Program-made: the position numbers and the translations under genes
In this document: piece by piece, positions 1,215-32,827 of the stretch
How the letters are laid out: every line of letters begins with the position of its first letter
Numbering within the stretch: the first letter of the stretch is position 1
The notes under the pieces: model-generated
What the model was told of the DNA's origin: nothing
Seen by the model: only the letters and a program-made list of their open reading frames with translations
Databases searched by the model: none
From: Thermoplasmata archaeon
GTDB lineage: Archaea; Thermoplasmatota; Thermoplasmata; RBG-16-68-12
NCBI GenBank assembly: GCA_035283985.1
Contig: DATESQ010000009.1
Coordinates: 953-64,952 of the forward strand
DNA length: 64,000 nt
Direction of reading: 5' to 3'

Positions 1215-1332
1215 ATACTTGCTGCAAAAAGGCACTTAACAACCAAGGGGTCTGCCCGCGCCTTACCCCCCCCGCGCGGGTCGTTGGAGACGCCTCTCGT
1301 AGGCCTGCGCATCAATCAATAGAGATGATCCC

Positions 1333-10696: not shown

Positions 10697-10833
10697 CTCC
10701 GTCACACCACGCCGGCCACTCCCATAAACCGGGAGCCCGCTTGAGAGTTGGGCAAGAGAGCCCCGTTCGTGACTCGCTCCCCCTGTTTCCTTGGGCAACG
10801 TTGAAATAGCGTCCGATTTTCCCAACGCCCATC

Positions 10834-11631: not shown

Positions 11632-11635
11632 TGCG

Positions 11636-13095: not shown

Positions 13096-13107
13096 TCCGG
13101 ATGGCGG

Positions 13108-13947
13108 ATGGCGGGTGAGGCGATGGCCCGGTCGATTGGCGTCGAGCTTCCGAGGAACGCGTACTACACGGGCGAGGTCGTTGACGGCGCGGTTGCACTG
13201 CATACGGACGATGGCGTCCGTTGTCGCGGCCTGTTCGTCGAACTCATCGGGCGCGAGGAGACGAAGATCGAGCGGGGATCTGGGAAGAGCCGCCACGTGT
13301 ACAAGTCATCGAAGGATCACGTCGCGTGGCGCCTCCCCCTTCTCGGCGAAGGGACGATCCCGCCGGGCGGACAACGGTTTCCCTTTCGTTTCCAGGTTCC
13401 GATCGAAGGGCTGCCCTCGTATCAAGGCCGCCATGCATGGATGAAGTACACCCTCACCGCGAGGCTCGACGTGCCCTTATGGCTGGATGCCGTCTGGTCC
13501 GGTGAGCTGTTCTTGTTCTACGACCGGAACAGCGTCCGTCGGTTCCCGCGGCCGATTCGGTTTCGCTCGGGCGGCCAAGGTCCCGAGGTGTTCGTTGACC
13601 TGGACGGCGACCGGTTCTTCGCGCGCGAACTCGTCGGTTGCCGGATCACGGTCTTCCGTCTGAGTGGTGCGCGCGTGCGTCGCGTGTACGCTCGCTTGAT
13701 TGGCGAGGAGTGGGCGAAGGCGGATCGCGTCGAGGAGACGACGGAAACGTTTCGGCAGGAGTGGTCGATTCCGATCGGGCGGGTCCAGGAGGGGGTCCCG
13801 TTCGAGTTCGAGATGCCGATTCCCGCGGATGTCCAGTCGAGCTACCACGGCACCCATTCATATTATTCGTACGCGGTCCAAGTCGGCCTCGACATCGCGC
13901 TTGCCTCCGACGTCGTGGCGCAGACTCCAATCGTGATCGTGCGATGA
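13108..13947 (+). CDS. Arrestin-fold (Spo0M-like) protein, tentative
   Basis: The protein has two internal repeats. Each ends in a similar beta-rich segment: YQGRHAWMKYTLTARLDVPLW and YHGTHSYYSYAVQVGLDIAL. It has no TM segments. The family call rests on pattern recognition only. Confidence 0.4.
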   Translation: MAGEAMARSIGVELPRNAYYTGEVVDGAVALHTDDGVRCRGLFVELIGREETKIERGSGKSRHVYKSSKDHVAWRLPLLGEGTIPPGGQRFPFRFQVPIEGLPSYQGRHAWMKYTLTARLDVPLWLDAVWSGELFLFYDRNSVRRFPRPIRFRSGGQGPEVFVDLDGDRFFARELVGCRITVFRLSGARVRRVYARLIGEEWAKADRVEETTETFRQEWSIPIGRVQEGVPFEFEMPIPADVQSSYHGTHSYYSYAVQVGLDIALASDVVAQTPIVIVR

Positions 13948-15118: not shown

Positions 15119-17095
15119 TCACAGGGCCTTCTCGACGAGTTCCGCGATGTCGTACCGGCGGATGTCCTCGCGGTTCTTCGTCTTCGCCGCGTCGTCGAAC
15201 ATGATTAGGCAGTACGGGCACGCGGTCGCGACGACGTTCGCGCCCGTCTCCTCGACGTGGCTCAGTCTGCGGTGGTTCACCCTCTCCCCGATTCGCTCCT
15301 CCATCCACATCCGCGCGCCGCCGGCCCCGCAGCAGAATCCCTTGTCCCGGCACTTCGACATCTCCACCGTTCGGACGCCAGGGATCCTCATCAGGACGTC
15401 CCGCGGCTCGTCGAAGATGTCGTTGTATCGCCCGAGGTAGCAGGAGTCGTGGTGCGTGATGAGGTCGGAAATCTCCTTCGTGAGCTTGATCCGGCCCTGA
15501 TCGAGGAGCTCCTTTAGGAGCTGGGTGTGGTGTATCACCTCGTAGTTCCCGCCGAACTGCGGGTACTCGTTCTTCAGGGTGTTGAAGCAATGCGGGCACG
15601 CCGTGACGATTTTCTTCACGCCGTACCGGTTGAAGGTCTCGACGTTCGCCGTCGCCATCGCCTGGAACAGGTACTCGTTCCCGATCCGTCTCGCGGGATC
15701 GCCCGTGCACCTTTCCTCGGGGCCGAGGATCGCGAACGGCACGCCGGCGTGGCGCATCAGTCGGGCGAGGGCCTGCGTGACCTTCCGATTGCGGTCGTCG
15801 AACGAGCCCGCGCAGCCGACCCAGAACAGGTACAGGTACCGCCCGCCGTCGGAGAGCTTCGGGACGTACATCCCCTCCGCCCAATCCCCGCGACGGTCCC
15901 ACCCGATTCCCCACGGGTTGTAGTTCTGCTCGATCTTCCGCATCGTCTCCATGGCCTCGGGCGGCATCGTGCCCTGGGTGAGGACCATGTGCCGCCGCAT
16001 CTCAATGATCTTCGGGACGTGCTCGTTCATCACGGGGCACTCGTACACGCACGCGTAGCACGTCGTGCAGGCCCAAATTCCGTCCTCGGAGTGGACCGTC
16101 GTGAACATGTCCGGGAGACCGTCCACCTTCCCGGCGACGATTGCGTTGCCCTGTTCATCGAGTGTGTCCCTCATGTTGGTGATGATCCGCATCGGGTCCA
16201 GCGGCTTGCCTGTGGCGTTCGCGGGGCACGCGTCCGTGCACCGGCCGCACTCTGTGCATGCGTAGCCGTCGAGGAGCTGCCGCCACGACAGCTGCTCGAC
16301 ACGGTTCACGCCGAACGTCTCGGCGCCCTCGAGGTTAACTTTCTTGATTGCGCCGCGCGGCGTAAGGTCCATGAAGAACGTGTTGACGATCGCGAAGATG
16401 ATGTGCATGTGCTTCGAGTGTGGGACGTACGCAAGAAATGAGAAGAGGAGCCCGACATGGGCCCACCAGAAGACCCGCCACCAGAAGACCGGATCCAACC
16501 GAACGACGGAGATGTTTAGGAGCAGGGCCGAGATCGGCTTCCACTCGACCATCGCGGCAGTCCCCGCAGCGATGTCCGCGGCGTTGTACAGGAGGAGTGT
16601 GACGACGATCCCGAGGATTGCGGAGAGGACGATTGTCGCGTCGAACATCCCCTCGTGCATGAGCTTCTTCGGGCGAATTATGTAGCGGCGGTGCAGGGCC
16701 ATCCCGACGCCGATCGCGGCGAGGACCGCGATGACCTCCTGGGCGAGGTACAGCGGACCGAGCAGAGAGAGGCCGAAGATCGTCGGCAGCGGAAACTGCC
16801 ATCCCGGCGCATACGCCTGCGCGGTGATTTCCGCGACACTCGTCCCGAGGATCACGAAGGCCCAGAAAATGAACGAGTGCAATACACCCGCGTACCACTC
16901 CCGCGCGACCTTCCGCTGGAAGATTCCGTAGACGATGAAGTTCTTCAGGCGCCGCGGGAACTGATCCCAGCGCCGCTCCCTGCCCTTGCCCGCGAAGAGG
17001 AACCGGAGGCGGTAATACATCTTCCGGCTGAAGATTCCGAGGCTCACGGCCAGGAAGGCCGTCACGGCGTATGTGTCGAGCGGTGTGACCGCCAT
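15119..17095 (-). CDS. Membrane-bound Fe-S oxidoreductase, fusion of a NarI/HdrE-like cytochrome b membrane domain with an HdrD/DsrK/GlpC-like subunit
   Basis: The N-terminal part has about five TM helices. The 2x[4Fe-4S] ferredoxin motifs are CTECGRCTDACP and CTTCYACVYECP. Two CCG domains are present (...VGCAGSF...CPHCF... and ...HDSCYLGRYN...CCGAGG...ACPYC). Confidence 0.8.
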   Translation of the reverse strand: MAVTPLDTYAVTAFLAVSLGIFSRKMYYRLRFLFAGKGRERRWDQFPRRLKNFIVYGIFQRKVAREWYAGVLHSFIFWAFVILGTSVAEITAQAYAPGWQFPLPTIFGLSLLGPLYLAQEVIAVLAAIGVGMALHRRYIIRPKKLMHEGMFDATIVLSAILGIVVTLLLYNAADIAAGTAAMVEWKPISALLLNISVVRLDPVFWWRVFWWAHVGLLFSFLAYVPHSKHMHIIFAIVNTFFMDLTPRGAIKKVNLEGAETFGVNRVEQLSWRQLLDGYACTECGRCTDACPANATGKPLDPMRIITNMRDTLDEQGNAIVAGKVDGLPDMFTTVHSEDGIWACTTCYACVYECPVMNEHVPKIIEMRRHMVLTQGTMPPEAMETMRKIEQNYNPWGIGWDRRGDWAEGMYVPKLSDGGRYLYLFWVGCAGSFDDRNRKVTQALARLMRHAGVPFAILGPEERCTGDPARRIGNEYLFQAMATANVETFNRYGVKKIVTACPHCFNTLKNEYPQFGGNYEVIHHTQLLKELLDQGRIKLTKEISDLITHHDSCYLGRYNDIFDEPRDVLMRIPGVRTVEMSKCRDKGFCCGAGGARMWMEERIGERVNHRRLSHVEETGANVVATACPYCLIMFDDAAKTKNREDIRRYDIAELVEKAL

Positions 17096-17252
17096 GCGAC
17101 CGAAGACAAGACGGGCGGGCTTTTGAAGGCAGCGTCCCTAGTACGCAGACGGGCACGGTCTCTGATTATCCACGGGTGGTCCCCTCAAAGGCGATGAACA
17201 ATTCAGGACCATCGGCATCCGCGTACGACTCCTACATGAAAACATTCGTGGG

Positions 17253-18494
17253 TCATAGATTCTTGATCACGCCATCCGCGAACTCGGAGCACTTGACCTC
17301 CGTGGCCCCCTCCATCTGGCGGGCGAGGTCGTACGTGACGATCTTCTGCGCGATCGTCCGCTTCACGCCCTCCTTCAGTGCCATGGCTGCCTCCCGCCAC
17401 CCGAGGTGCTCGAGCATCATCACGCCCGCGAGGATTTCCGCGGTCGGGTTCGCCTTGTCGAGTCCCGCGTATCGCGGCGCGCTCCCGTGGATCGTTTCGA
17501 ACAGCGCGTGCGCGTCCCCTATGCTCCCGCCTGCCGCGACGCCGAGGCCGCCGACCTGTGCCGCGGCCGCGTCGCTCAGATAATCGCCGTTCAGGTTCGG
17601 CGTCGCGAGGACGTCGTAGTCCTCCGTCCGCGTGAGGAGTTGCTGGAACATGTTGTCCGCGATGACGTCCTTGATCACGATCCTCCCCTTTGGCGACGTC
17701 CCGCCGTAGTTCTTGTTAATCTCGTCGAGCGTCACGGCCTGCTTCGCGAACTCCTCCCGCGCGACCGCGTAACCCCACTCCCGGAACGCCCCCTCCGTGA
17801 ACTTCATGATGTTCCCCTTGTGGACGATCGCCACGGACCGGCGACCGTTCTCAATCGCGTACCGGATCGCCTTCCGGACGAGACGCTTCGTCTTGAACTC
17901 CGAGATCACTTTGAGGCCGAGCCCCGCGTCCTCAGGAATCTTCAGGCGGAACTCCTTCTCGAGGATCTCCCGGAGCCGCGCCGCCTCCGGTGTTCCCCGC
18001 TGCCACTCGATCCCCGCGTAGACGTCCTCCGTTGCCTCCCGGAAGATTACGAGGTCCATCCGCTCCGGGTGCTTCATCGGGCTCGGCACGCCCGGGAGCC
18101 AGTAGATCGGGCGGATGTTTGCGTAGAGGTCGAGGGTCTGGCGGAGTGCGACGTTGAGGGACCGAAATCCGCCGCCGATCGGCGTCGTAAGGGGGCCTTT
18201 CAGGGCAACGACGTAGTCCCGGATCGCACGGAGCGTCGCCTCCGGGAGCAGGTCGCCGAACTTGTGCAGGGCCATCTCCCCCACGGGGACGTCGAACCAC
18301 ACGATTTTCCGCCGTCCGCCGTACGCTTTTTGAACCGCTGCGGAGATCACTCGCCGCGCGGCCCGCGTGACGTCGGGTCCGATGCCGTCGCCCTCGATGA
18401 TCGGGATGATGGGGTCGTCGGGGACCCTCAGCTGCGTCCCCGCGATGATGATCTTGTGGCCCTCCGATGGCGGGAAGAGCTTGAGCTTCTCCAC
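17253..18494 (-). CDS. icd: Isocitrate dehydrogenase (NADP-type, prokaryotic Icd family)
   Basis: The motifs IIEGDGIGPDV, NVALRQTLDLYANIRP, IVHKGNIMKFTEGAF and GGTSPKG are present. Confidence 0.9.
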   Translation of the reverse strand: MEKLKLFPPSEGHKIIIAGTQLRVPDDPIIPIIEGDGIGPDVTRAARRVISAAVQKAYGGRRKIVWFDVPVGEMALHKFGDLLPEATLRAIRDYVVALKGPLTTPIGGGFRSLNVALRQTLDLYANIRPIYWLPGVPSPMKHPERMDLVIFREATEDVYAGIEWQRGTPEAARLREILEKEFRLKIPEDAGLGLKVISEFKTKRLVRKAIRYAIENGRRSVAIVHKGNIMKFTEGAFREWGYAVAREEFAKQAVTLDEINKNYGGTSPKGRIVIKDVIADNMFQQLLTRTEDYDVLATPNLNGDYLSDAAAAQVGGLGVAAGGSIGDAHALFETIHGSAPRYAGLDKANPTAEILAGVMMLEHLGWREAAMALKEGVKRTIAQKIVTYDLARQMEGATEVKCSEFADGVIKNL

Positions 18495-18548
18495 GGGAAT
18501 CCCGTGCGTTATCGGCGGCCGCTCTTTAATGTATCCGCTGTACAGGCA

Positions 18549-19466
18549 TTACGGTGGAAGGCGTGCCCCGCACTTTCCGCAGAAATCAAAGTCGGCGGGC
18601 ATCCCCTTCGTCCGGCACTTCGGGCACTCCCGCACGGGCGGGCCATGGAGGAACTCCGGGCTGTCCGAGCCCTCCGCGCGATAATCCGGCGTCCGTTTCT
18701 CGACGAACGCCCGCATCCCCTCGAACGGTTCCCGCGTCGCGAAGTGCAGGCTCAGCCAGTCCCGCGCATGGCCGATCGTCGCGTGCCATGCGAGGTCCTT
18801 CCAGAAGTTCACCTGCTGCTTCGTGTACCGCAAGGACTCCGGGAACTTGTCGATTAACTTGTCCGCGGCCTCACGAACCTTCGCGTCGAGCTCGGCCCGG
18901 GGCACGACCCAGTTCACGAGCCCCCATTCGAGCGCTTTCTTGGCGGACACGCGCTCGCACAGGTACAGCATCTCCCTCGCCCGACGGTCTCCGATGAGTA
19001 ATGGAAGCCACTGCGTCGCCCCGCCCGCCGCAACGGAGCCGACCTTCGTACCGACTTGGAGAAAATCGACGTCGTCCGCCGCCACGCTGAGGTCGCACGC
19101 CATATGGAGCTCGTTCCCGCCGCCTGCGCACACGCCGTTCACACGCGCGATCGTCGGCTTCCCGCAATCCCGCAGCGCATCGACCGCCTCCTGGAACACG
19201 ACCATGTACTTCCAGTAATCCCGAGGACGCTTCGTGTACACGTCCGCGTACTCCTTCACGTCCCCGCCCGTGCAGAACGCCTTGTCGCCCTCGCCCGTGA
19301 GGACGATGACGGCCACGTCGTCGTCGAACGCGGCTTGCCGAAACGCGTCCCGCATCTCTCGCAGCGTCTCGAGCGTGTACGCGTTGTGCACGTGCGGGCG
19401 CCGAATCGTCACGGTCGCGACCTTATCCTTGAGTGCGTATCCGATCTCCTTGTACTCCAATCCCAT
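18549..19466 (-). CDS. Enoyl-CoA hydratase/isomerase (crotonase) family protein with a C-terminal zinc-ribbon extension; possibly a ring-hydrolysing Oah-like enzyme
   Basis: The crotonase fold includes ATVTIRRPHVHNAYT, FCTGGDVKEY and ARVNGVCAGGGNELHMACDL. The appended ribbon is CPKCRTKGMPADFDFCGKCG. It is the last gene of the acyl-CoA operon. Confidence 0.8.
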   Translation of the reverse strand: MGLEYKEIGYALKDKVATVTIRRPHVHNAYTLETLREMRDAFRQAAFDDDVAVIVLTGEGDKAFCTGGDVKEYADVYTKRPRDYWKYMVVFQEAVDALRDCGKPTIARVNGVCAGGGNELHMACDLSVAADDVDFLQVGTKVGSVAAGGATQWLPLLIGDRRAREMLYLCERVSAKKALEWGLVNWVVPRAELDAKVREAADKLIDKFPESLRYTKQQVNFWKDLAWHATIGHARDWLSLHFATREPFEGMRAFVEKRTPDYRAEGSDSPEFLHGPPVRECPKCRTKGMPADFDFCGKCGARLPP

Positions 19467-20486
19467 TCAGATCCCTCCAGGGACGACGACCGCACGAATC
19501 AGGTCTGGCGCGGAAGACTCGAGGAGCTTCAGTGCCTCCGCGGTCCGATCGAGAGGGAACCGGTGCGTGACGAGGGCCTTCGCGTCGACCTTTCCGCGGG
19601 CGACGAGGTCGATCACCTTCGGGAAGTCCTGGAGCCCGCACCCGAGAGAGCCGAGGATTTCGATCTCCCGGAACATCACGCGGCTCGCGCTGATTGTGGC
19701 GGGAGCCTCGGAGTAGCCCACGACGACGACTCGTCCGCCGGGCCGCACGGCCTCGACGGCGGCCGCGATCGTGGCGGGCTTCCCGATGATCTCCGCGGCG
19801 ACGTCCGCGCCACCGGTGACCTGGCGAATCGCCTTGCCGAGGTCCGAGGCCTTCGATGCGTCGATCGTAGCCTTCGCGCCGAACCGCTCCGCAGCCCGGA
19901 GCTTCGGCTCTGCAACATCCACCGCCGTTACGTTCGCGCCGAGCGCGACCGCGATTTGGACCGCCGCGAGGCCGACGCCGCCGCAGCCGATGATCGCGAC
20001 GCTCTCGCCTGGTCGCACCCGCCCGCGGTTCGCTATCGCGTGGTACGCGGTCGAGACCGCATCGGAGACGACGCTGCCCTCCACGAGGGGAATCGATGAC
20101 GGCAATGGGAACGCGGCCCACGCGGGTGCGGCGATTCGTTCTGCGAACCCGCCATCTCGGTGGTTCCCGAACATCTCCATGGACGCGCACAGGGTGTTCC
20201 GCCCCTCGAGGCACGCGCGGCACCGTCCGCAGGGAAGGACGGGCGGGAGCAGGACCCGCGCGCCGGGCTTCAGCCGGTCCGAGGACGACTCCCGCACGGT
20301 CCCGCTCACCTCGTGGCCGAGGACGAGGGGCTTCGGTTTCACCGTGGGCACCCCGTGGACGTAGTGGAGGTCCGTTCGACACACGCCGCACGCGGCGACC
20401 TCGACGATCGCCTCGCCGAGCCCCATCGCGGGCTCCGGCACGTCCCGCACCTGGACCCCTGCGGAATCGAGGACCGCCGCCCTCAC
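19467..20486 (-). CDS. Zinc-dependent alcohol/hydroxyacyl dehydrogenase (MDR family)
   Basis: The motifs VAACGVCRTDLHYVHG and GHEVSGTV, and the Rossmann motif IIGCGGVGLAAVQIA, are present. A GTG start at 20486 is preceded by GGGGGAG. It overlaps the upstream gene by 4 nt. Confidence 0.8.
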   Translation of the reverse strand: MRAAVLDSAGVQVRDVPEPAMGLGEAIVEVAACGVCRTDLHYVHGVPTVKPKPLVLGHEVSGTVRESSSDRLKPGARVLLPPVLPCGRCRACLEGRNTLCASMEMFGNHRDGGFAERIAAPAWAAFPLPSSIPLVEGSVVSDAVSTAYHAIANRGRVRPGESVAIIGCGGVGLAAVQIAVALGANVTAVDVAEPKLRAAERFGAKATIDASKASDLGKAIRQVTGGADVAAEIIGKPATIAAAVEAVRPGGRVVVVGYSEAPATISASRVMFREIEILGSLGCGLQDFPKVIDLVARGKVDAKALVTHRFPLDRTAEALKLLESSAPDLIRAVVVPGGI

Positions 20487-21256
20487 CGGGCGCTCCCCCA
20501 CTGCGGCGGCCGCTTCTCAAGGAAGGCCCGCAATCCCTCGACCGCGTCGGGCGTGCGGGCGAGCTCCCGCACGTACCGGCGTTCCGCGGCCTGGAACGGG
20601 TCCCCTTCCCGCTCCTCGCGGAGCGCGCGCTTCAGCACCGCCATCGCGACGCGGCTGTGCCCGGCGAGGACCTCCGTCATCTTCTCGACCCACCCGTCGA
20701 GGGCGGCCTCCGGGACGCAGGCGGTCAGATAGCCCGCCGCCATCGCCTCCGTGGCGGGGAACGTGCGCCCGGTCGCAAGGTCGAGGAACGCGCGGCGGGG
20801 GCCGACGAGCCGTCCGTACCGGGCGACGGCGTACGGCGGAATCGCCGCGAGGCCGATCTCCGGCTGTCCGAACGTCGCGGTCTCCGCAGCGACGACGAGG
20901 TCGCAGGCCATCGCGAGCTCCATGCCGCCGCCGAGGCAGTGGCCCCGCACCGCGGCAATCGTCGGGCGGTCGAACGACTCGACCCGCCGGAGGAGCGCGT
21001 GGAACGACCGGAGCGTGTCCTCGATCCGGTCCGGGAGATGGTCCTCGACCGCGACGCCTGCGGAGAACGCTTGGGGCGTCCCCCGGAGGACGAGGACCCG
21101 CCACTCGTTTCGGGCCTCAAGGGACTCCACGGCGGCGTCCATGGACCGGAGGAGCGCGAGGTCGAGGATGTTCAGGCGGGGACGATTGAGTGTGACGGTG
21201 GCGATTCCGTCCCGGACTTCCGTCGTGATTTCAGACGGGTCGACGGTGCGCGTCAC
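20483..21256 (-). CDS. Enoyl-CoA hydratase (258 aa, Dch-like size)
   Basis: The crotonase motifs are IATVTLNRP, FSAGVAVEDH and AAVRGHCLGGGMELAMACDLVVAAE. A GTG start at 21256 has GGAG 7 nt upstream. The first half of the 551-aa ORF is Arg-rich alternate-frame artefact. Confidence 0.8.
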   Translation of the reverse strand: MTRTVDPSEITTEVRDGIATVTLNRPRLNILDLALLRSMDAAVESLEARNEWRVLVLRGTPQAFSAGVAVEDHLPDRIEDTLRSFHALLRRVESFDRPTIAAVRGHCLGGGMELAMACDLVVAAETATFGQPEIGLAAIPPYAVARYGRLVGPRRAFLDLATGRTFPATEAMAAGYLTACVPEAALDGWVEKMTEVLAGHSRVAMAVLKRALREEREGDPFQAAERRYVRELARTPDAVEGLRAFLEKRPPQWGSAR

Positions 21257-22053
21257 GCGGGCGCTCCTGCCAGCCGCTTCGCGAGTCGCTGCTGTCCGAG
21301 GAGGGTCGCACCGAGCGCACCCGCGAGAGGCGTATCCGCCGAGACGTTCAGCGGTCGCCCGAGCCGGAGCTCGAGCGCGTGGACCATGGCGGGGTTCCGC
21401 GCGAGCCCGCCGGTCAGGGTGACCTCGCCGTCCCCGCCGACCTGGCGGAGGAGCGCGAGGACGCGGTCCGCGATCGAGAGGTGCGCGCCCATCAGGATGT
21501 CCTCCGCCGGCTTGCCCTGGCTGACGTGGTTGATCACCTCGGACTCTGCGAGGACCGCGCAGATGCTGCTGATCGGCTGCGGGTCCTTCGAGCGGAGCGC
21601 AACCGCTGGGAGCTCCTCGAGCGGGATGTCGAGCGCGCGAGCGACGCGTTCGAGGAACTTCCCCGCGCCCGCCGCGCATCGGTCGTTCATCTTGAACCGC
21701 ATCACATGGCCCCGGTCGTCCATCCGCACCGCGCGCGAGCTCTGGGCGCCGATGTCCAGGATGCACCGGGTGGCGGGGAACAGGAACCGCGCACCCCGCG
21801 CGTGGCACGTGACCTCCGTGATCTGGAGGTCGCGGTCCGGCAGCTGGTAGCGGCCGTATCCCGTCGTTGCGACGTAGCGGACATCGGATGGCGCAAGTCC
21901 CGCGCGACGGATCGCCTCCGCCAACGCCTCCCGCCCGGAGGCCTCCAGGTCCACCCGAGTCTTCACCGCGGCGGTGCCGAGCACGCCCCTCTCCGGGTCG
22001 TACAGGACCGCCTTCGTCGAGCCCGCGCCGATATCCACGCCCGCGGAGATCAT
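21253..22053 (-). CDS. CoA-substrate-specific enzyme activase (BadF/BadG/BcrA/BcrD; HgdC-like ATPase with a bridging [4Fe-4S] cluster), copy 2
   Basis: The N-terminal motif MISAGVDIGAGSTKAV, plus ITEVTCHARGA and the conserved Cys, indicate the acetate/sugar-kinase-fold ATPase. It starts at the internal ATG and overlaps the upstream activase by ATGA. Confidence 0.85.
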   Translation of the reverse strand: MISAGVDIGAGSTKAVLYDPERGVLGTAAVKTRVDLEASGREALAEAIRRAGLAPSDVRYVATTGYGRYQLPDRDLQITEVTCHARGARFLFPATRCILDIGAQSSRAVRMDDRGHVMRFKMNDRCAAGAGKFLERVARALDIPLEELPAVALRSKDPQPISSICAVLAESEVINHVSQGKPAEDILMGAHLSIADRVLALLRQVGGDGEVTLTGGLARNPAMVHALELRLGRPLNVSADTPLAGALGATLLGQQRLAKRLAGAPA

Positions 22054-22871
22054 CCGCTCGCCTCCGCCACAAGTTCCGTCGGCGGTGCGCCTCGAGCCCG
22101 CTCGAGGGCGTACAGCGCCGCGCCGATCGCGCCGACATACTGCGAGAGCGGGCTCACGTTCACCTTCGTCCCGAGCTGGCCTTCGAGCGCCTGCACCATC
22201 CCGACGTTTCGCGAGACTCCGCCCGTGAACGTCACCTCCGGGGTGATCCCGACCCGCCGCATGAGGGCGATCGACCGGATTGCGATCGCGTTGTGGACGC
22301 CCCTCAGGACGTCCTCGATTTTCTCGCCGCGGGCCATGTGGGACATGATCTCCGACTCGACGAAGACCGTGCACACGTTCGTGATTCGCAGAGGTTTCGC
22401 AGCCTTCAGGGAGATCGGGCCGATCTCGTCGATCGAGAGGCCCACCGCGAGCGCGGCGTTGTCCAGGAACCGCCCCGTCCCCGCCGCGCACTTGTCGTTC
22501 ATGCAGAAGTCCGTGACCTCGCCTCGCTCGTCCGCGCCAATCGCCTTCGTGTCCTGCCCGCCGATGTCCACGATTGTCCGTGTGCCGGGGAACAGGTAGT
22601 GCGCCCCCTTCGCGTGGCAGCTGATCTCGGTGATCTGCGTGTGCCCGAACGGGATCTTGAACCGGCCGTACCCGGTCCCGACGACGAACTCGACCTCGTG
22701 CTCGTCGATCTTCGCGGCCTCGATCGCCTCCTTGAACCGCCGCTGCGCGGCCTCCACGATGCTCGCGCCCGTCGGGCCGAGGGATGTCGCCGCGATCTTC
22801 CCCTCCCCGTCGAGAATGACGACCTTTGCCGTCGTCGACCCGATGTCCGCGCCCGCGACGTACACGTTCAT
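22050..22871 (-). CDS. CoA-substrate-specific enzyme activase (HgdC/BcrAD-family ATPase), copy 1
   Basis: The motifs VAGADIGSTTAKVVI, ITEISCHAKGAHYLFP, VDIGGQDTK and MNDKCAAGTGRFLD are present. Confidence 0.85.
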   Translation of the reverse strand: MNVYVAGADIGSTTAKVVILDGEGKIAATSLGPTGASIVEAAQRRFKEAIEAAKIDEHEVEFVVGTGYGRFKIPFGHTQITEISCHAKGAHYLFPGTRTIVDIGGQDTKAIGADERGEVTDFCMNDKCAAGTGRFLDNAALAVGLSIDEIGPISLKAAKPLRITNVCTVFVESEIMSHMARGEKIEDVLRGVHNAIAIRSIALMRRVGITPEVTFTGGVSRNVGMVQALEGQLGTKVNVSPLSQYVGAIGAALYALERARGAPPTELVAEASG

Positions 22872-24106
22872 CCCCCCAGGAGCCGCCGGTGGCTCAGGGA
22901 CTCGAAGAACGCGTCGATCCGGTTCTTCAGCTGGGCCTCGGAGTAGTACCGCGGGTCCGCGAGGTCCGATTCCACCATGAGGGTCGGGATCCCGTCGTTC
23001 TTGACGAGGACCTCCCGGAAATCCGCCTGGCCCACGGAGAACGACCGGCAGCTCTTTGTGGAATGGATCACGACCGCGTCCGCCTCGTACTCCTTCACGT
23101 ACCGCCGCAGGAGGTCGAGACGGAGCCCGAGATTCCAGTTCGTGTAGCAGTTCATCGCGTACCGCGCGATGCTCTCGAGCGGTTGCGCGGGATCGTGGAG
23201 AATCCCTTGGTCAAAGAGTCCGCCGACCTTCGAGTACGTCGACGCGACTCCGCAGACGCCCCACCGCTTGAACAGCTCCCAGAACGAGCGGAAGTGCGGC
23301 CACGGCGGCGGGCCCTCGAACACGACGCGGAACTTCTCCTCCGGGACGGGCCCGCGCCTCTCCTTCTGGCGAGCCCGGAGCTCCTCGAGGAGGAGCCGGT
23401 AGTACTCCACGCACCCCTCCGTCCCGCGGAGGATGTTCAGCGGAGCCATGTAGAACACCGCCTCGAAGTACGCGTCGTACGGCGACGGGTGGGACTGCGC
23501 GGTCTTCAGGGCTTCGACCCACAGCCGTTCCGCCTCCATGGACAGCTCGAGGGTCCGGCGGAGGCGACCCCGGTCGAACGGGACGCCGGAGATCCGGGCG
23601 CAAACGGTCGCGAGCTCCTCGAGCTGTGCGACAATGTAGTCCACGTCCTCCTTCGCAGCCTCCCGCTCCCGAAGGTACGGGATGTCGAGGACGAACAGCT
23701 CCGCATCGTAGAAGTGGGCGAGCGCCTCGAACCACTTCACGAACGTGTTGCACCCGGAGTAGTTGCACACGAGGAGGTCCGGCTTCGGGAGCACCCCGAA
23801 CGGGCTCTTCCGGTCGGAGAGCATCAGCCCGATGTCGTTCTTCACGTACCCGCACACGTCGCTCGAGTACCCGAGGTTCTCCGCGCGCAGGATCAGGTCC
23901 CCCGCCATCTTCTTAATCCCGCACTGGAGCGCGTTGATCTCCGGGTACACGGGGAGCATGTCGAAGCACCGCGTGAGCTCGACGACGTTCCCCGGGACGA
24001 ACATGTACGCGACCTTCCGTCCGTTCCGCCCCTCGTCGCTCAGGCTGCCGTAGTACTCGGAGAGCAGCCGCCTCTGGAGGTCCTTTCCCGCATCGCCATC
24101 GGTCAT
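22868..24106 (-). CDS. 2-hydroxyacyl-CoA dehydratase / benzoyl-CoA reductase family subunit (HGD-D; BcrB/BcrC-HgdAB-like), 412 aa
   Basis: The HGD-D family pattern includes conserved Cys-containing segments (LLVCNYSGCNTF, CNSGCVTNW). It is translationally coupled to its neighbours by 4-nt overlaps. Confidence 0.8.
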   Translation of the reverse strand: MTDGDAGKDLQRRLLSEYYGSLSDEGRNGRKVAYMFVPGNVVELTRCFDMLPVYPEINALQCGIKKMAGDLILRAENLGYSSDVCGYVKNDIGLMLSDRKSPFGVLPKPDLLVCNYSGCNTFVKWFEALAHFYDAELFVLDIPYLREREAAKEDVDYIVAQLEELATVCARISGVPFDRGRLRRTLELSMEAERLWVEALKTAQSHPSPYDAYFEAVFYMAPLNILRGTEGCVEYYRLLLEELRARQKERRGPVPEEKFRVVFEGPPPWPHFRSFWELFKRWGVCGVASTYSKVGGLFDQGILHDPAQPLESIARYAMNCYTNWNLGLRLDLLRRYVKEYEADAVVIHSTKSCRSFSVGQADFREVLVKNDGIPTLMVESDLADPRYYSEAQLKNRIDAFFESLSHRRLLGG

Positions 24107-24110
24107 GGTC

Positions 24111-25247
24111 TCACTCGAACAGGATCGATTCCACGAACGTCTCCACCTGCGTGCGCACCGTCTCGAACACGCTCATCTTCTCCTCGAACTCAATGTGGAC
24201 GTACGGGATCCCCGCCGCCTCGAGCCGCTCCTTGTACAACACCTGGTCGTACAGCGCGGGCTCGCAGAACTTCGCCGTGCAGAACACGACGCCCGTCGCG
24301 CCGATCGCCCGAATGCTCGCGGGGAGGTCATCTTGCTTCCGCCGCCCGCGGTAGTGGCTCACGGACGAGGCGGGGCTCTGCGTGACGTACGCTTCCGCGA
24401 GGGCCCGGAGCGGGTCGCCGTCCGCTGGGATCGGCTCCCGGAACCACCGGAGCCCGAGGAGGAGGTCGTCCTCGAGGACGTAGCACCCCGCCTCCTCGAT
24501 CGCGCGGATCAGGTCGATCGGCGGTTGCTCGCAGAACGCGCCGAGGAGGACGACACGGAGCCGGTCCTTCTCCTTCCGCCCCCTCCGCCTCGCGGCCGCG
24601 ACCGCGTTCCGGAGGAACTGCGTGTGCGCGTCCCGGTCCATCGTCGCCCCCGCCCGGAGCAAGAGGTAGCTCTCCCACGCGTCGAGGAGCCACGGCGTCT
24701 CCCGCCGCACGGCGAGGAGGTCTTGCGCCGCGCGGCGGTTCGCGTTGTGGGATTCGATCGCGGCCCGCAGGTCGGCCTCCGAGGCGGGACGGCCCGTCAG
24801 CCGGCTGAGCCCATTCAGAAGCCTCCGGTACTCCGCGATCGCGTAGGGCACGGCGCTCGCGCTGTCGCGGTTCTGCGGAAGGTGCAGGAACTCCACGAAC
24901 GTCTCCGGGAAGTTCCGCGACCACACCCCGGAGAGGTTCCGCGCGACGTCGCAAATCGACGGAAACACGAAGCCGTCAAGCGTGCCGAGGCGGGCGGTGA
25001 GGCCGAGCTCGAGCGTGGAGCGGGAGATCGAGCACACGAACGATTGGATACGGGAGTCTGCGTGGCTGATGTCGATCGAACCGCCCGCGCCGAAGAGCCA
25101 CACGGGCAGCGCCCCGACGGCCTGGATTAGCTCCGTGGGGACGTACACCGGGAACGCCCCGATCGCCTTCCCCGCGGGATGGCCTTCCTTCCACGTCCGC
25201 ACGGCGGAGAGCGACGTGTCCGCTACGGACTCGCGGGCGAAGGCCAT
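24111..25247 (-). CDS. 2-hydroxyacyl-CoA dehydratase / benzoyl-CoA reductase family subunit (HGD-D), 378 aa
   Basis: It is a second HGD-D paralogue (FPVYVPTELIQAVG...CDV...VVFCTAKFCEPALYD) and the first gene of the operon. Confidence 0.8.
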   Translation of the reverse strand: MAFARESVADTSLSAVRTWKEGHPAGKAIGAFPVYVPTELIQAVGALPVWLFGAGGSIDISHADSRIQSFVCSISRSTLELGLTARLGTLDGFVFPSICDVARNLSGVWSRNFPETFVEFLHLPQNRDSASAVPYAIAEYRRLLNGLSRLTGRPASEADLRAAIESHNANRRAAQDLLAVRRETPWLLDAWESYLLLRAGATMDRDAHTQFLRNAVAAARRRGRKEKDRLRVVLLGAFCEQPPIDLIRAIEEAGCYVLEDDLLLGLRWFREPIPADGDPLRALAEAYVTQSPASSVSHYRGRRKQDDLPASIRAIGATGVVFCTAKFCEPALYDQVLYKERLEAAGIPYVHIEFEEKMSVFETVRTQVETFVESILFE

Positions 25248-25299
25248 CAGCTCGTCGAGGGATGGATTGTCGTTCGCCGCAAGGCCCGGGGCTGCCGTC

Positions 25300-25345
25300 G
25301 CAACTCTCCAGTTTAGCTATGCAGTAGCTACAATATAAACACTTT
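25300..25345 (-). promoter_or_regulatory. Candidate archaeal BRE/TATA promoter of the acyl-CoA operon, with TAGCTA direct repeats
   Basis: This is the only AT-rich block in the 176-nt gap. The minus-strand sequence reads aaagtgTTTATATTgtagctactgcatagcta. The TATA element lies about 80 nt upstream of the first operon ATG. Confidence 0.3.
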
Positions 25346-25423
25346 GCAGATGCAACGAGGTATACCGGCGTATTCCCCCCCCGGGGGTCGGGTTTCAGGG
25401 CGGAGCGGCGGGAAGGACGGGGG

Positions 25424-26572
25424 CTAGCGGTTGTCGATCGGGACGTACACGGCCTCGCGGGGCCCGACGTACCAATCGAGCGGCCGCATGATCCGGTTGT
25501 CCTCCCAGTACTCGAGGATGTGTGCAACCCATCCCGAGATGCGGGAGACCGCGAAGGTTGTCGGGAACAAGTCCGGCGGAAGGCCGAGAAGCTGGTACAC
25601 GACGCCCGCGTAGTAGTCCACGTTCGGGTAGACCCCCTTGCCCCCGAGGCGGCGGACGACGGCCTCCTCGACGGCTTTCGCAACGCCGTACAGGGCCATG
25701 TCTCCCTTCCGTTCGCTCAGCTTCTTCGCGTACTCCGCGAGGATGAGGGAGCGCGGGTCCCACGTCTTGTACACGCGATGGCCGAACCCGGACACCCGGT
25801 CCCCGGAGGCGAGGGTCTTCGCGACGTACTCGTCCGCGCGATCCGGCGACCCAATCTCGAGGAGGGCCTTCACGGCCTGCTCGTTCGCCCCGCCGTGGAG
25901 CGGCCCCTTCAAGGTCGCGATCCCGGCCGCGACGCAGGAGTACAAGTCCGCGAGTGTCGAGGCCGCGACGGTCGCCGCGAACGTGCCCGCGTTCATCGAG
26001 TGGTCTGCGTGGAGCACGAGGGCGGCGTCGAGGATTCGCGACGCCACCTTGTCCGGTTTCCGGCCCATGAGCATCCGGAGATAGTCCGTCGCGGCGCTGT
26101 ACTTCGGGTTCGGCCTCACCACCCGTTGCCCGTTCCGAATCCGGTGGAACGCCGCGACGAGGGTCGGCATCTTCGCGACGAGGCGCATTCCCTTCCGGAC
26201 GTTCGCTTCCCGCGACGTCGCGTTCAGTTCCGGATCGTACGCACTCAGCGCGGAGACGGCGGTCCGCAGGGCGTCGATCGGAGTCATCGTCTTCGGCAAC
26301 TTCTTGAGAAGCGCGACGAGCTCCGCCGGTACCTCGCGATGCGAGGCGAGTTCCGCCGAGAACGGCGTCAGCTGCTCGCGGCTCGGCAATCGCCCATGCC
26401 ACAACAGGTACGTCGTCTCCTCAAACGTCGAATGGGCCGCGAGATCTCGGATGTCGTAGCCCGCGTAGAGGAGCCGCCCCGTCGTACCGTCGACGAAGCA
26501 GATGCGGGTCTCCTTCACGAAGATGTCGTCCAGGCCCTTGTCGATCCGAGGACCGCCTGTCGGAGACCCCAT
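25424..26572 (-). CDS. gltA: Citrate synthase (or 2-methylcitrate synthase)
   Basis: The motifs LHADHSMNAGTFAA, GPLHGGANE and GFGHRVYKTWDPR are present. The second ATG has GGAAGG upstream; the ORF could start at 26608. Confidence 0.85.
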   Translation of the reverse strand: MGSPTGGPRIDKGLDDIFVKETRICFVDGTTGRLLYAGYDIRDLAAHSTFEETTYLLWHGRLPSREQLTPFSAELASHREVPAELVALLKKLPKTMTPIDALRTAVSALSAYDPELNATSREANVRKGMRLVAKMPTLVAAFHRIRNGQRVVRPNPKYSAATDYLRMLMGRKPDKVASRILDAALVLHADHSMNAGTFAATVAASTLADLYSCVAAGIATLKGPLHGGANEQAVKALLEIGSPDRADEYVAKTLASGDRVSGFGHRVYKTWDPRSLILAEYAKKLSERKGDMALYGVAKAVEEAVVRRLGGKGVYPNVDYYAGVVYQLLGLPPDLFPTTFAVSRISGWVAHILEYWEDNRIMRPLDWYVGPREAVYVPIDNR

Positions 26573-26697
26573 CACAATCCTTCCATCGCATCGTTCCGAC
26601 CCGGGCACCCGGAGGTCCCCACGGTGGTGCCTACAATGAGAGCGACATCCCTCTTAGGGTTTTCGGCAAAACACGATACTCCGGCGATCCGCGTCGA

Positions 26698-27543
26698 TCA
26701 GAGCGGGAATCGCAGAATCGAGTCGACGACGATCCCGATCAGGAGTGCCCCGAGGTACGCGCTCGAGTACTTGTAGCCCGTCCACGCGGTGTCCGGGCTT
26801 GGGTGCGCGGAGAACCGCCACGTCACGACGACGAGCCCGGCCGCCGCGGCGGCCGCCACAACGACGTACGCGAGTCCGAATGCGTTTGTAAGGCCGAACG
26901 TGAGGGCGACGATCCCGACGAGGATCGACGAGCCCGCGATCGCCCGCACCGCGGTCGAGTCGGTCCGGACTGCAGGGAGCATCGGGAGCCCAGCCCGGCG
27001 GTAGTCCGACTTTTGGCGGTACGCGAGGGCCCAGAAGTGGCCCGGTGTCCAGAGGAACACGAGAAGGGCGATGAGCACGGCGGCCAGGGACACGCCACCG
27101 GACACCGCCGCAGAGCCCGCGAGGGCGGGACACGACCCCGCGAACCCGCCAATCACGATGTTGCTCTCGCTCCGCCGCTTCAGGCCAACCGTGTACACGC
27201 CGAGGTACGTCGCGACCCCAAGGGCGATGAACCCCGCCGTGAGCGGATTGTTCAGGAACCAGGCGATCGCCAGGGACGCGGTGATTAGCCCCCCTCCGAA
27301 CGCGAGGGCCTTCTCCGGGGGCTGGATCCGATGCATCGGGAGCGGCCGCCCGCGCGTCCGGTCCATCAATTCGTCGATGTCTCGGTCGATGTATGCGTTC
27401 ACGACGCTCGAGCCCGTGGACGCGAGGAAGCCCGCGACGAGGAGCGATCCCAGGGCGGACCACCCGACCGCGGCCCCGCGCGTCGCAATGAACCCGGAGA
27501 GGGCGACGAGGAGGAGAAGGCCTGCGATGCGGACCTTCATCAT
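26698..27543 (-). CDS. ctaB: Protoheme IX farnesyltransferase (heme O synthase, UbiA family)
   Basis: It is a multi-TM UbiA-fold protein with NAYIDRDIDELMDRTRGRPLP and WTPGHFWALA. It starts at the internal ATG ATG; the upstream part of the ORF is Arg/Ser-rich artefact. Confidence 0.8.
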   Translation of the reverse strand: MMKVRIAGLLLLVALSGFIATRGAAVGWSALGSLLVAGFLASTGSSVVNAYIDRDIDELMDRTRGRPLPMHRIQPPEKALAFGGGLITASLAIAWFLNNPLTAGFIALGVATYLGVYTVGLKRRSESNIVIGGFAGSCPALAGSAAVSGGVSLAAVLIALLVFLWTPGHFWALAYRQKSDYRRAGLPMLPAVRTDSTAVRAIAGSSILVGIVALTFGLTNAFGLAYVVVAAAAAAGLVVVTWRFSAHPSPDTAWTGYKYSSAYLGALLIGIVVDSILRFPL

Positions 27544-28324: not shown

Positions 28325-29221
28325 TCACCCGCTCATGAACGAGCGGACCATCGTGAACACGTTGCGGGGGCGCTCACGGAGTCGCCGCGTGAAGTATGGA
28401 AGCCAGTTCGGGCCGTACGGGATGTACTCGAGCACCCGGTGACCTTTCGCCACGAGCTCGTCTTTCAGCGCGTCTCGCACCCCGAGGAGCATCTGGAACT
28501 CGAATCGCCGCGGCGCTGCGCGAACGAGTTCGAGGGTCCGTTCGATCATCGCCCCGTCGTGGGTCGCGACCGCGAACCGGTCCCCGCGCTCGAACAGGAG
28601 CCCGAGGACCCTCCGAAAGTTCGCGTCGACCTCCCGGCGGTCCCGGACGCCGACGGGCGGGAGCTCGCGGTACGCACCTTTGCACAGGCGGACGATTCCG
28701 CCAACCTCTAGAAGCGATTCGACGTCCTTCTCCGTCCGCCGCAGGTTCGTCTGGACCGCGACGCCGACACGATCGTACGCCGCGAGCGCGCGGCGGTAGA
28801 CATCAAGGGTCCGGTCCGTGAACCGCGATCCCTCCATGTCCATCCACAGGAACGCATCGAGGCTCCGCACGCGGTCGAGGATTTTCTTCACGTTAGACCA
28901 AAAAAATTCCTGATCGATGATTATCCCGCACTGCGTCGGCTTGATCGAGACGCACGCATCCATCTTCCGGTTCTCGGCGGCGTCGATGACCTCGATGTAC
29001 TCGTCGACTGCTGCGAGGACCGCAGACCGCCCCTCGACGTGCTCACCCAGGAGGTTGAGGATCGCGCCGATGTGGCGGTCGTTCGCTTCATCCGCCCGTA
29101 CCAGCGCGTCCGCCATCGTCTCGCCGGCGACCCACTGGTTTGCGAACCGGATGAGAAGGCCCACGGGGGTCCGGTTAGCGGACGTTGCGCCATAAATCTT
29201 CGGCACTTGCACTCCTGACAT
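28325..29221 (-). CDS. Proline dehydrogenase (PutA PRODH-domain family)
   Basis: The beta8-alpha8 PRODH pattern includes VSIKPTQ, WMDMEGS and IVRLCKGAYRE. Confidence 0.75.
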   Translation of the reverse strand: MSGVQVPKIYGATSANRTPVGLLIRFANQWVAGETMADALVRADEANDRHIGAILNLLGEHVEGRSAVLAAVDEYIEVIDAAENRKMDACVSIKPTQCGIIIDQEFFWSNVKKILDRVRSLDAFLWMDMEGSRFTDRTLDVYRRALAAYDRVGVAVQTNLRRTEKDVESLLEVGGIVRLCKGAYRELPPVGVRDRREVDANFRRVLGLLFERGDRFAVATHDGAMIERTLELVRAAPRRFEFQMLLGVRDALKDELVAKGHRVLEYIPYGPNWLPYFTRRLRERPRNVFTMVRSFMSG

Positions 29222-29275
29222 GCCCGTGGCTCGAAAGGTTCTTGCCCCGACCCGCGCTCGCCGCGATGTTCTTCG

Positions 29276-29995
29276 ATGGAGATTCTCCTTTTCCTGGGGC
29301 TTGCGCTTGCCCTAGGGTTCAAGCACAGCTACGACGCGGACCACCTTGTCGCGGTCTCGAACCTCCTCACCCGGAGCAAGAACCTCCGCCGGACGATCGC
29401 GATGAGCGTGAGCTGGGCGCTCGGTCATATGCTCACCGCCTCCGGCGTGACCCTCATCCTCTTCGTCTTCCGGGAGGCGTTCCTCGCGCAGTTCCTCGCA
29501 ATCTTCGAGCTTGCGGTCGCGGCGATGCTGATCGCAATCGGCCTCGTGTCCCTCACGTGGGAGTTCCGCGTCCTGCAGCGGCTCGGCCTCCTCCACGAGC
29601 ACCCACACGAACACCTTACGGGAGCGCACGCGCATCCACACTTCCACGTCCGGCGGTTCGGGGACCACGGCACCATGTTCGGGATCGGCGTCGTGCACGG
29701 CCTCGCGAGCAACGACGAGTTGCTCATCCTCCTGGTCGCGGCCCTCAGCGTCGCGACCCTCGGAGGCTTGCTGCTCGGAGTCGCCGTCTTCAGCGTCGGC
29801 GTCGTCCTCGGGATGGTCCTCTTCGGTATCGGTCTGAGCTATCCGATTGTGCGCTGGGGCGATGCGAAGGTTCGGCGGGTCACGACCGTCGTCACCGCGA
29901 TCCTGAGCATCGCGTACGGGATTCTTCTGTTCGCGGGCTTCGGGGGAATCAGCCTTCTGCCCTTCGTGACCGCCGAATGGTCCGCGAGGGTTTAA
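29276..29995 (+). CDS. NicO/RcnA-like nickel/cobalt transporter with a His-rich loop
   Basis: It is a 6-TM protein with the central loop HEHPHEHLTGAHAHPHFH. The family assignment is tentative. Confidence 0.5.
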   Translation: MEILLFLGLALALGFKHSYDADHLVAVSNLLTRSKNLRRTIAMSVSWALGHMLTASGVTLILFVFREAFLAQFLAIFELAVAAMLIAIGLVSLTWEFRVLQRLGLLHEHPHEHLTGAHAHPHFHVRRFGDHGTMFGIGVVHGLASNDELLILLVAALSVATLGGLLLGVAVFSVGVVLGMVLFGIGLSYPIVRWGDAKVRRVTTVVTAILSIAYGILLFAGFGGISLLPFVTAEWSARV

Positions 29996-32721: not shown

Positions 32722-32827
32722 GGGATCATGAGGGCTGAACCGCCGGAGTTCAATAGACTTTTCGGATTCAGGGCGGACGCGCCAAAGTATATAGTTTGCC
32801 AGGGGTTCCCCAGGCGGAGGCGGGCCT

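Follow-up and report, generated by a model that had tools for sequence, protein, structure and literature searches.

The locus described here raises the question of whether a seven-gene operon of a Thermoplasmata archaeon encodes the ATP-driven reduction of an aromatic acyl-CoA ester or a related 2-hydroxyacyl-CoA dehydratase of the fermentative kind. The operon lies in a 64,000-nucleotide stretch of contig DATESQ010000009.1 (GenBank assembly GCA_035283985.1), referred to below as the window, and its genes are named g1 to g7 in the order in which they are read (Table 1). It probably encodes, with a probability of roughly 0.7, a Thauera-type (BcrCBAD/MbdONQP) class I aryl-CoA reductase that is driven by ATP, together with three enzymes that process the reduced ring. 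A sequence-only reading of the same DNA had proposed a class I benzoyl-CoA reductase and is supported, since none of the three findings that it regarded as contrary was made: the subunits of the HGD-D family do not cluster with dehydratases, the two ATPases did not arise by recent duplication of an HgdC-type activase, and the partner enzymes are not those of generic beta-oxidation.

The four predicted reductase subunits

Sequence comparison establishes the subunit composition of the complex, its family placement, the cluster and catalytic residues and the linkage of the genes. Two different HGD-D proteins (g1 and g2, with a weak mutual local BLASTP match of 22% identity over 227 residues) and two different ATPases of the BcrAD_BadFG family (g3 and g4, 43% identical to each other) are encoded by contiguous or overlapping genes, which is the four-subunit arrangement. 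Besides these four, Pfam also upholds the other domain assignments of the sequence-only reading, namely ECH for g5, a zinc-dependent medium-chain dehydrogenase/reductase (Zn-MDR) for g6, and ECH followed by a C-terminal CxxC-x11-CxxC zinc ribbon for g7.

Among the NCBIfam models, g2 is best matched by BcrB (TIGR02260, 401 bits, cut-off 487), followed by HadB (208 bits, cut-off 750) and BzdO (108 bits), and g1 by BcrC (TIGR02263, 335 bits, cut-off 421), followed by HadC (202 bits, cut-off 700) and BzdN (106 bits); the cut-offs of the Bzd families are about 450 bits. In pairwise alignments, g2 is 45% identical to BcrB of Thauera aromatica (366 bits) and 36.5% identical to MbdO (262 bits) of the 3-methylbenzoyl-CoA reductase MbdONQP of Thauera chlorobenzoica, and g1 is 38% identical to T. 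aromatica BcrC (299 bits) and 39% identical to MbdN (273 bits). All four values exceed those between the reference enzymes themselves (BcrB and MbdO, 32% and 205 bits; BcrC and MbdN, 34% and 217 bits), so that the window proteins fall within the span of two validated reductases. In a calibration, MbdO reached 221 bits on the BcrB model and MbdN 230 bits on the BcrC model, both below g2 and g1; the NCBIfam cut-offs therefore delimit a narrow group of proteobacterial BcrCBAD/BadDEFG orthologues, not the enzyme class. Full-length reference sequences come from PMC11971306 (Source Data), and the others from PDB alignments.

Among solved structures, MbdONQP (PDB 9g87/9gai) is the best match for all four subunits: MbdO for g2 (9g87_A, 257 bits; HadB 171), MbdN for g1 (278 bits), MbdQ for g3 (320 bits, 55% identity; HgdC 223), and MbdQ (236 bits) followed by MbdP (192 bits) for g4. 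In the overall ranking of the reductase subunits Mbd comes first, 2-hydroxyisocaproyl-CoA dehydratase or its activator second, and BzdNO third. The genes are arranged in the order O-N-Q-P in Mbd and C-B-A-D in the window, the latter also being the order of bcrCBAD in T. aromatica.

The second rank of HadB, HadC and HadI is one of the points in favor of an alternative, in which the operon would encode a 2-hydroxyacyl-CoA dehydratase (Hgd/Had/Fld/Lcd) and its activator, acting in amino-acid or lactate fermentation with ordinary beta-oxidation partners. The Pfam families HGD-D and BcrAD_BadFG are common to both kinds of enzyme, NCBI records name the homologues generically '2-hydroxyacyl-CoA dehydratase', and the (R)-2-hydroxyisocaproyl-CoA dehydratase HadBC of Clostridioides difficile, with HadI, has the same fold, the three-cysteine [4Fe-4S] site and the glutamate. 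However, HadB is 30% identical to g2 (176 bits), and HadB and HadC score about half of BcrB and BcrC. In a neighbor-joining (NJ) tree built from Kimura distances of g2, 37 relatives from GTDB genomes, BcrB, MbdO, HadB and BzdO, all sequences except HadB and BzdO form one clade in 98 of 100 bootstraps. The g1 tree, obtained in the same way with BzdN as the only outgroup, is poorly resolved, with both BcrC and MbdN falling inside or next to one and the same radiation.

The ATPases argue in the same direction. Dehydratases use a single homodimeric activator, and HadBC is accompanied by a single activator gene, whereas the window contains two diverged paralogues, co-encoded one-to-one with the catalytic subunits and grouping with MbdQ and MbdP, not with HgdC or HadI. 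In the NJ tree of ATPases, g3 and MbdQ form the alpha clade (79/100), g4 and MbdP form the delta clade (50/100; 79/100 for the inner clade that does not include MbdP), and the two clades together exclude HgdC and HadI (81/100). The moderate mutual identity of g3 and g4 and their placement in separate clades indicate that they did not arise from a single activase by recent duplication. NCBIfam matches g3 to BcrA (TIGR02259, 207 bits, cut-off 578) over its C-terminal part only (profile positions 214–432), as it lacks the long extension that T. aromatica BcrA has at its N terminus; MbdONQP has a short alpha ATPase (about 270 amino acids, aa) like g3. The best specific family for g4 is BcrD (TIGR02261, 191 bits, cut-off 313). 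The ATP motifs of g3 are DIGSTTAK and DIGGQDTK, while the second phosphate motif is degenerate in g4 (DIGAQSSR), as it is in MbdP (DIGGQTMK). Both cysteines of the bridging cluster are present in each ATPase (in NDKCAAG and VCTVF of g3, in NDRCAAG and ICAVL of g4), as the sequence-only reading had proposed. The genes linked to the reductase resemble the dehydrogenase Had and the crotonases MenB, BadI and Oah, not fermentation genes. The dehydratase alternative, which had been raised along with the benzoyl-CoA reductase, is very improbable and can be regarded as close to excluded by these comparisons.

The structure of BzdNO assigns roles to residues C95, C128, C380, E65, Y97 and Y298 of BzdO (PMC11971306). 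In a MAFFT alignment of g2 with BcrB, MbdO, HadB and BzdO, the equivalents of the three cluster ligands (C95, C128, C380), the catalytic glutamate (E65) and the thioester tyrosines (Y97, Y298) are all kept in g2; the same six residues are present in HadB too, and thus point to catalytic competence, not to specificity. The position of BzdO His131 is phenylalanine in g2, BcrB and MbdO. Among the seven pocket positions that vary, g2 agrees with BcrB at five and with MbdO at two, a mapping that is only suggestive because the alignment was made at 24% identity. In g1, Cys72, Cys99 and Cys328 are kept as in BcrC, MbdN and BzdN, and Cys239 and Cys255 are common only to Thauera-type subunits; BzdN has six cysteines for its [8Fe-9S] cluster, so that with three shared columns and two Thauera-type cysteines a site of this kind is not evident in g1. 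The Bzd type, exemplified by BzdNOPQ of Aromatoleum, shares with the window the ATP-driven mechanism, the superfamily and the cluster, Glu65 and Tyr97 equivalents (PMC11971306), but the identity is only 24–26% at about 106–127 bits (BzdO against g2, 24% and 127 bits). A tblastn search of a plasmid collection with g2 returned only matches of 27% identity or less; one of them, on a plasmid of Azoarcus KH32C, was rejected as a Bcr reference, as the cluster to which it belongs is unrelated and dehydratase-like, has one activase gene and offers no Oah.

Downstream enzymes and the proposed route

In the preferred reading of the operon as a class I reductase, reduced ferredoxin, encoded elsewhere, would reduce the bridging [4Fe-4S] cluster of the g3/g4 ATPase heterodimer, and ATP hydrolysis would lower the potential of the electron and drive it via the cluster of g1 to the active-site [4Fe-4S] cluster of g2. 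There benzoyl-CoA or a close analogue would take up two electrons to give a cyclic dienoyl-CoA. Hydration of the cyclic diene could be performed by g5, oxidation of the resulting 6-hydroxy compound to a beta-keto compound by g6, and hydrolytic cleavage of a C–C bond of the ring by g7, yielding a pimelyl-CoA derivative for beta-oxidation. Four elements of this scheme are inferred: that benzoyl-CoA is the substrate, that two electrons are transferred, which electron donor is used, and in which order the three downstream enzymes act. The set resembles that of T. aromatica, where the four subunits BcrCBAD are likewise joined by the hydratase Dch, the Zn-MDR dehydrogenase Had and the ring hydrolase Oah, which has a crotonase fold; it differs in its archaeal host and in the placement of all seven genes in one operon.

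The sequence-only reading had compared the last three genes with Dch, Had and Oah. The best family of g6 is Had, by a narrow margin; g5 shows no specific likeness to Dch, and g7 is no canonical Oah. The g5 protein belongs to Pfam family ECH_1 and is best matched in NCBIfam by generic hydratases (about 150 bits), with 136 bits on Dch (TIGR03189, cut-off 292); its two catalytic glutamate contexts, GGGMELA and GQPEIG, are those of a standard two-Glu crotonase. The Dch role is proposed for it because of its position in the operon and its recurrence beside reductase genes. The g6 protein comprises domains ADH_N and ADH_zinc_N, with a catalytic zinc motif (CRTD...GHE) and a structural zinc motif (CGRCRACLEGRNTLC), and its orthologues reach 247 bits (locus L025) and 430 bits (locus L022) on the Had model, the latter passing the cut-off of 339. 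The affinity of g6 to Had, the MenB/BadI/Oah-type character of g7 and the recurrence of the trio beside reductases across phyla speak against generic beta-oxidation partners.

The g7 protein is matched over its full length by MenB (207 bits) and BadI (205 bits, positions 1–254 of 256), in both cases below the cut-off, and by Oah at 199 bits (cut-off 464) over profile positions 40–211 of 360 only. Its top five PDB matches are all MenB (175–185 bits), ordinary hydratases reaching at most 147 bits. Where MenB has GQTGPKVGS, g7 reads QVGTKVGS, a GxKxGS active-site loop replacing the second catalytic glutamate. In place of the Oah of T. aromatica (about 360–380 aa) the window has a shorter, MenB/BadI-like crotonase that ends in a zinc ribbon. 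The ribbon is formed by Cys281, Cys284, Cys296 and Cys299 (about nucleotides 18570–18626), which are invariant in 29 g7 homologues of 64–90% identity. Longer zinc-ribbon crotonases (355–370 aa, in loci L006 and L025) carry an insert of about 50 residues where canonical Oah has extra sequence, and g7 lacks this insert. An AlphaFold2 model of g7, based on the 29-sequence alignment, had a mean pLDDT (predicted local distance difference test) of 64.6, with values below 50 in the C-terminal helices and the ribbon, and was not used owing to this low confidence. No paper linking a zinc-ribbon crotonase with the benzoyl-CoA pathway was found in the literature searched.

The BadI-like character of g7 bears on a rival explanation, in which the same architecture performs other chemistry: the substrate would be a benzoyl-CoA with a methyl, hydroxy, amino or halogen substituent, or the reduction would take four electrons and yield cyclohex-1-ene-1-carbonyl-CoA. 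A four-electron reduction has reportedly been proposed for BadDEFG of Rhodopseudomonas palustris, and in such a variant g5 would act as BadK, g6 in the place of BadH, and g7 as BadI (2-ketocyclohexanecarboxyl-CoA hydrolase) to produce pimelyl-CoA. The system of R. palustris (BadDEFG/BadK/BadH/BadI) is of Thauera-type class I and its BadI is a short MenB-like crotonase, to which g7 can be aligned in full, while its match to Oah covers only the N-terminal half of the Oah profile; the missing insert points the same way. BadI differs in that its profile, TIGR03210 (256 positions), gives no sign of a zinc ribbon. The presence of a short-chain dehydrogenase/reductase (SDR) beside the reductase genes at several related loci would also fit, as would the equal closeness of g1 to MbdN and BcrC and the two MbdO-like pocket positions. 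On the other hand, BadH is an SDR and g6 is a Zn-MDR whose best family is Had; overall identity and most of the pocket residues place g2 closer to BcrB than to MbdO; and genuine Had and Oah, which belong to the dienoyl-CoA route, occur at related loci. Taken together, we consider such other chemistry unlikely. The route predicted from these comparisons would be that of the Thauera type or, given the BadI-like hydrolase, an R. palustris-like variant of it.

Recurrence of the module in other genomes

A search with g2 yielded 80 genome loci with 46–85% identity, and 539 relatives were confirmed among matched stretches in GTDB species genomes. The closest relatives (85% identity of g2) are metagenome-assembled genomes (MAGs) labelled Thermoplasmata, Methanobacteriota or Methanomassiliicoccales archaeon. 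The reductase with a g5/g6/g7-like set recurs, in shuffled gene order, in many Thermoplasmata MAGs, Planctomycetota, Anaerolineae, Eisenbacteria and one Nitrososphaerales MAG, and the downstream trio is found beside this reductase clade also in Acidobacteria. Among the 35 g2 loci with at least 5 kb of sequence on each side, 14 contain a zinc-ribbon crotonase (12 of them together with a Zn-dependent alcohol dehydrogenase) and one a canonical Oah. At the locus with the canonical Oah, L022, whose BcrB is 58% identical to g2, the reductase is adjoined by an Oah scoring 470 bits (cut-off 464, profile positions 4–356) and by the above-mentioned Had; as both pass their cut-offs, they tie the reductase clade to the dienoyl-CoA route. 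In searches seeded with g7 alone, the four reductase genes were present within 10 kb in all three annotated contexts, and in metagenomes 12–13 of 17 well-flanked loci of the g7 family have reductase genes within this distance. A strict linkage of g7 to the reductase was rejected, as four of these 17 loci have no reductase genes; there the crotonase is accompanied either by an SDR or by thiolase together with a bifunctional 3-hydroxyacyl-CoA dehydrogenase/hydratase.

Two versions of the module are seen in Thermoplasmata. The first, C-B-A-D-ech-adh-ech(Zn), is present in the window and in loci L003, L004, L007 and L009; the second, ech(Zn)-B-A-D-C-ech-adh, is found in loci L025–L042 and L053, where BcrB shares no more than about 52% identity with g2. 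In the BcrB tree the two versions are placed apart from each other, each among sequences of bacteria, and this pattern points to more than one transfer between domains. Citrate synthase and icd, considered as a functional part of the operon, were rejected: their adjacency recurs only in the closest relatives, L004 and, for citrate synthase, L007, and at no other locus.

The predominance of uncultured lineages leaves room for a further explanation, namely that the whole clade has an undescribed function, an ATP-driven low-potential reductase acting on another, possibly non-aromatic, CoA ester. All close relatives at the 80 loci are MAGs, with not one cultured organism, no benzoate-CoA ligase is encoded near the operon in the 64-kb window, and about a quarter of the well-flanked g7-family loci are associated with thiolase and 3-hydroxyacyl-CoA dehydrogenase, or SDR, instead of the reductase. 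This explanation is quite improbable, given that T. aromatica BcrB branches among these sequences and not outside them, that the pocket residues of g2 match those of BcrB, and that canonical Had and Oah, specific for the benzoyl-CoA route, are located beside a member of the clade.

Several observations weigh against the assignment of the operon to a class I aryl-CoA reductase pathway. None of the seven proteins reaches an NCBIfam equivalog cut-off, the nesting of BcrB among its environmental relatives has weak NJ support (about 54/100), g5 is not specifically Dch-like, g6 scores 205 bits on the Had model (TIGR03201, cut-off 339), marginally above IolM (200 bits), and the part of canonical Oah that forms its C-terminal half is missing from g7. 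In the 64-kb window there is no AMP-binding signature of a benzoate-CoA ligase and, outside a 658-aa HdrD-like protein, no CxxCxxCxxxCP ferredoxin motif; Pfam scans of the other open reading frames (ORFs) of the window detected no 2-oxoacid (2-oxoglutarate):ferredoxin oxidoreductase (KGOR). In the relatives examined, benzoate-CoA ligase, ferredoxin and KGOR are likewise absent within 10 kb of the reductase, and in lacking linked ferredoxin and KGOR genes the window differs from T. aromatica. In addition, the neighboring genes described below suggest an oxygen-exposed organism. A linked ferredoxin, a ferredoxin-regenerating oxidoreductase and an aryl-carboxylate CoA ligase are common in model clusters without being a defining feature. 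One related locus has a two-subunit CoA transferase adjoining the cluster.

Archaeal examples of this pathway were called rare in the sequence-only reading, which is correct for experimentally studied cases: to our knowledge, the only archaeon in which anaerobic breakdown of the aromatic ring has been studied biochemically is Ferroglobus placidus, whose class I system is reportedly of the Bzd type. It is not correct for MAGs, as class I bcr together with dch, had and oah has been reported in MAGs of Thermoplasmata and Bathyarchaeota (PMC6472368; cited again in PMC8163825), and bcrABCD in most genomes of 'Ca. Yaplasmales' (RBG-16-68-12) (PMC9239135); F. placidus is cited as an archaeon with a working class I system (PMC6472368). 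These MAG reports are all based on automated annotation. With bcr, dch, had and oah already reported in Thermoplasmata MAGs, the pathway found here is of a known kind, and its most original element is the conserved zinc-ribbon protein, a candidate ring hydrolase in the usual place of Oah.

It is possible, although we hold it somewhat less probable than the opposite, that the g7 family, with members of 305–325 aa and the invariant four-cysteine ribbon, is an uncharacterised, widespread ring-opening hydrolase that replaces canonical Oah/BamA in a large reductase clade so far seen only in uncultured lineages, and that the window combines it with a Thauera-type pathway in an oxygen-exposed archaeon. 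The clade with this hydrolase would then span Thermoplasmata, Planctomycetota, Acidobacteria, Anaerolineae and Nitrososphaerales, and surveys that use bamA/oah as marker genes would miss these anaerobic degraders of aromatic compounds. Anaerobic breakdown of the aromatic ring is a major step in the carbon cycle and in bioremediation. A Thauera-type, ATP-consuming benzoyl-CoA pathway in an oxygen-exposed archaeon would be a combination without cultured or biochemical precedent. For the Thauera-type system in Thermoplasmata, the window offers a clean and complete example in one operon that would suit heterologous expression. The curated NCBI cut-offs for BcrABCD leave out a very large environmental clade, represented by the 539 confirmed relatives and placed between two validated enzymes.

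Operon layout and genomic neighborhood

Table 1. Genes of the operon and its putative promoter (window coordinates).
Feature	Position	Strand	Product or description
g1	24111–25247	−	378 aa; BcrC/MbdN-like gamma subunit, predicted electron-transfer Fe-S subunit
g2	22868–24106	−	412 aa; BcrB/MbdO-like beta subunit, predicted to bind the substrate and to carry the catalytic [4Fe-4S] cluster
g3	22050–22871	−	273 aa; alpha-type electron-activating ATPase, BcrA/MbdQ-like
g4	21253–22053	−	266 aa; delta-type ATPase, BcrD/MbdP-like; predicted heterodimer partner of g3 with bridging [4Fe-4S] cluster
g5	20483–21256	−	257 aa; crotonase-fold enoyl-CoA hydratase, candidate for the Dch role (dienoyl-CoA hydratase)
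g6	19467–20486	−	339 aa, or 344 aa from an alternative GTG start at 20501; Zn-MDR dehydrogenase
g7	18549–19466	−	305 aa; crotonase of the MenB/BadI/Oah clade with C-terminal zinc ribbon; candidate ring-opening beta-ketoacyl-CoA hydrolase
Putative promoter region	25317–25355	−	AT-rich; archaeal TATA-like box TTTATAT, first base at 25339

All seven minus-strand ORFs of the sequence-only reading were recovered, with g4 and g5 each one residue shorter than had been stated (266 instead of 267 aa and 257 instead of 258 aa), and independent gene calls on two ENA metagenome contigs of identical sequence gave exactly the same seven genes. The G+C content at third codon positions is 0.76–0.92 in the operon frames reported by the frame scan, the G+C content of the window being 65%. 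The genes had been described as chained by 4-nucleotide overlaps, and four of the six junctions are of this kind (ATGA at g2/g3 and g3/g4, GTGA at g4/g5 and g5/g6); the remaining two, equally tight, are a 4-nucleotide spacer at g1/g2 (TGAgaccATG) and a direct abutment at g6/g7 (TGAATG). The TATA-like box, about 90 nucleotides upstream of the ATG of g1, follows a purine-rich sequence, GCAAAGTG, similar to the transcription factor B recognition element. In the interval 17000–26800 it is the sole TATA-like heptamer (TTTAWAW) on the minus strand and lies inside the sole stretch with at least 75% AT, which fits the proposed single AT-rich promoter. The icd gene starts 54 nucleotides beyond g7, the spacing given in the sequence-only reading, and probably has a promoter of its own; a weaker AT-rich patch (ACATTAAAGA) is located in the gap ahead of it. 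A scan for sigma-70 promoters and intrinsic terminators found nothing exceeding shuffled sequences, as expected in an archaeon, and a scan with Rfam found one tRNA and nothing else.

EtfB and EtfA are encoded at 10810–12604, and directly after icd a gene at 15119–17095 (minus strand) codes for a 658-aa protein with an N-terminal membrane domain of at least three hydrophobic helices with several histidines, two [4Fe-4S] motifs and two CCG domains, resembling HdrD, DsrMK or ETF:quinone oxidoreductase. Both had been placed 7–9 kb from the operon; EtfBA is about 6–8 kb away, and the HdrD-like protein just 1.5–3.4 kb. Although generic, these proteins could act together with acyl-CoA dehydrogenases of the lower pathway. 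A role in that pathway, such as that of a glutaryl-CoA dehydrogenase, could also fall to an acyl-CoA dehydrogenase of which only the C-terminal part (63579–63998, minus strand) is present, as the end of the window cuts it.

Genes related to oxygen are located around the operon, whose enzyme is expected to be oxygen-sensitive: Ni-superoxide dismutase (about 33637–34106), a cupredoxin/multicopper protein (32206–32910), proline dehydrogenase (28325–29311) and hemerythrin (62476–63066). They suggest that the organism lives facultatively or under micro-oxic conditions. Facultative anaerobes are the typical hosts of class I reductases (PMC11971306).

Elsewhere in the window, a 1624-aa large subunit of ribonucleotide reductase (1303–6177, plus strand) is interrupted by an intein with Intein_splicing, Hint and LAGLIDADG homing-endonuclease domains. 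The product of 13096–13947 (plus strand) is an archaeal protein with matches to eukaryote-type Arrestin_N and Vps26 (E-value 7e-20), and is kept near the locus in a related Thermoplasmata MAG (L004, 18472–19296). A helicase of the Lhr type with 1833 aa (49526–55027, plus strand; DEAD, Helicase_C, DEAD_assoc and WH_Lhr domains) is fused to an AlkZ-like DNA glycosylase domain. Finally, an 892-aa protein (56284–58962, minus strand) combines FG-GAP and He_PIG repeats of extracellular type with C-terminal HVO_0163-like and winged-helix DNA-binding domains, which is an unusual architecture.

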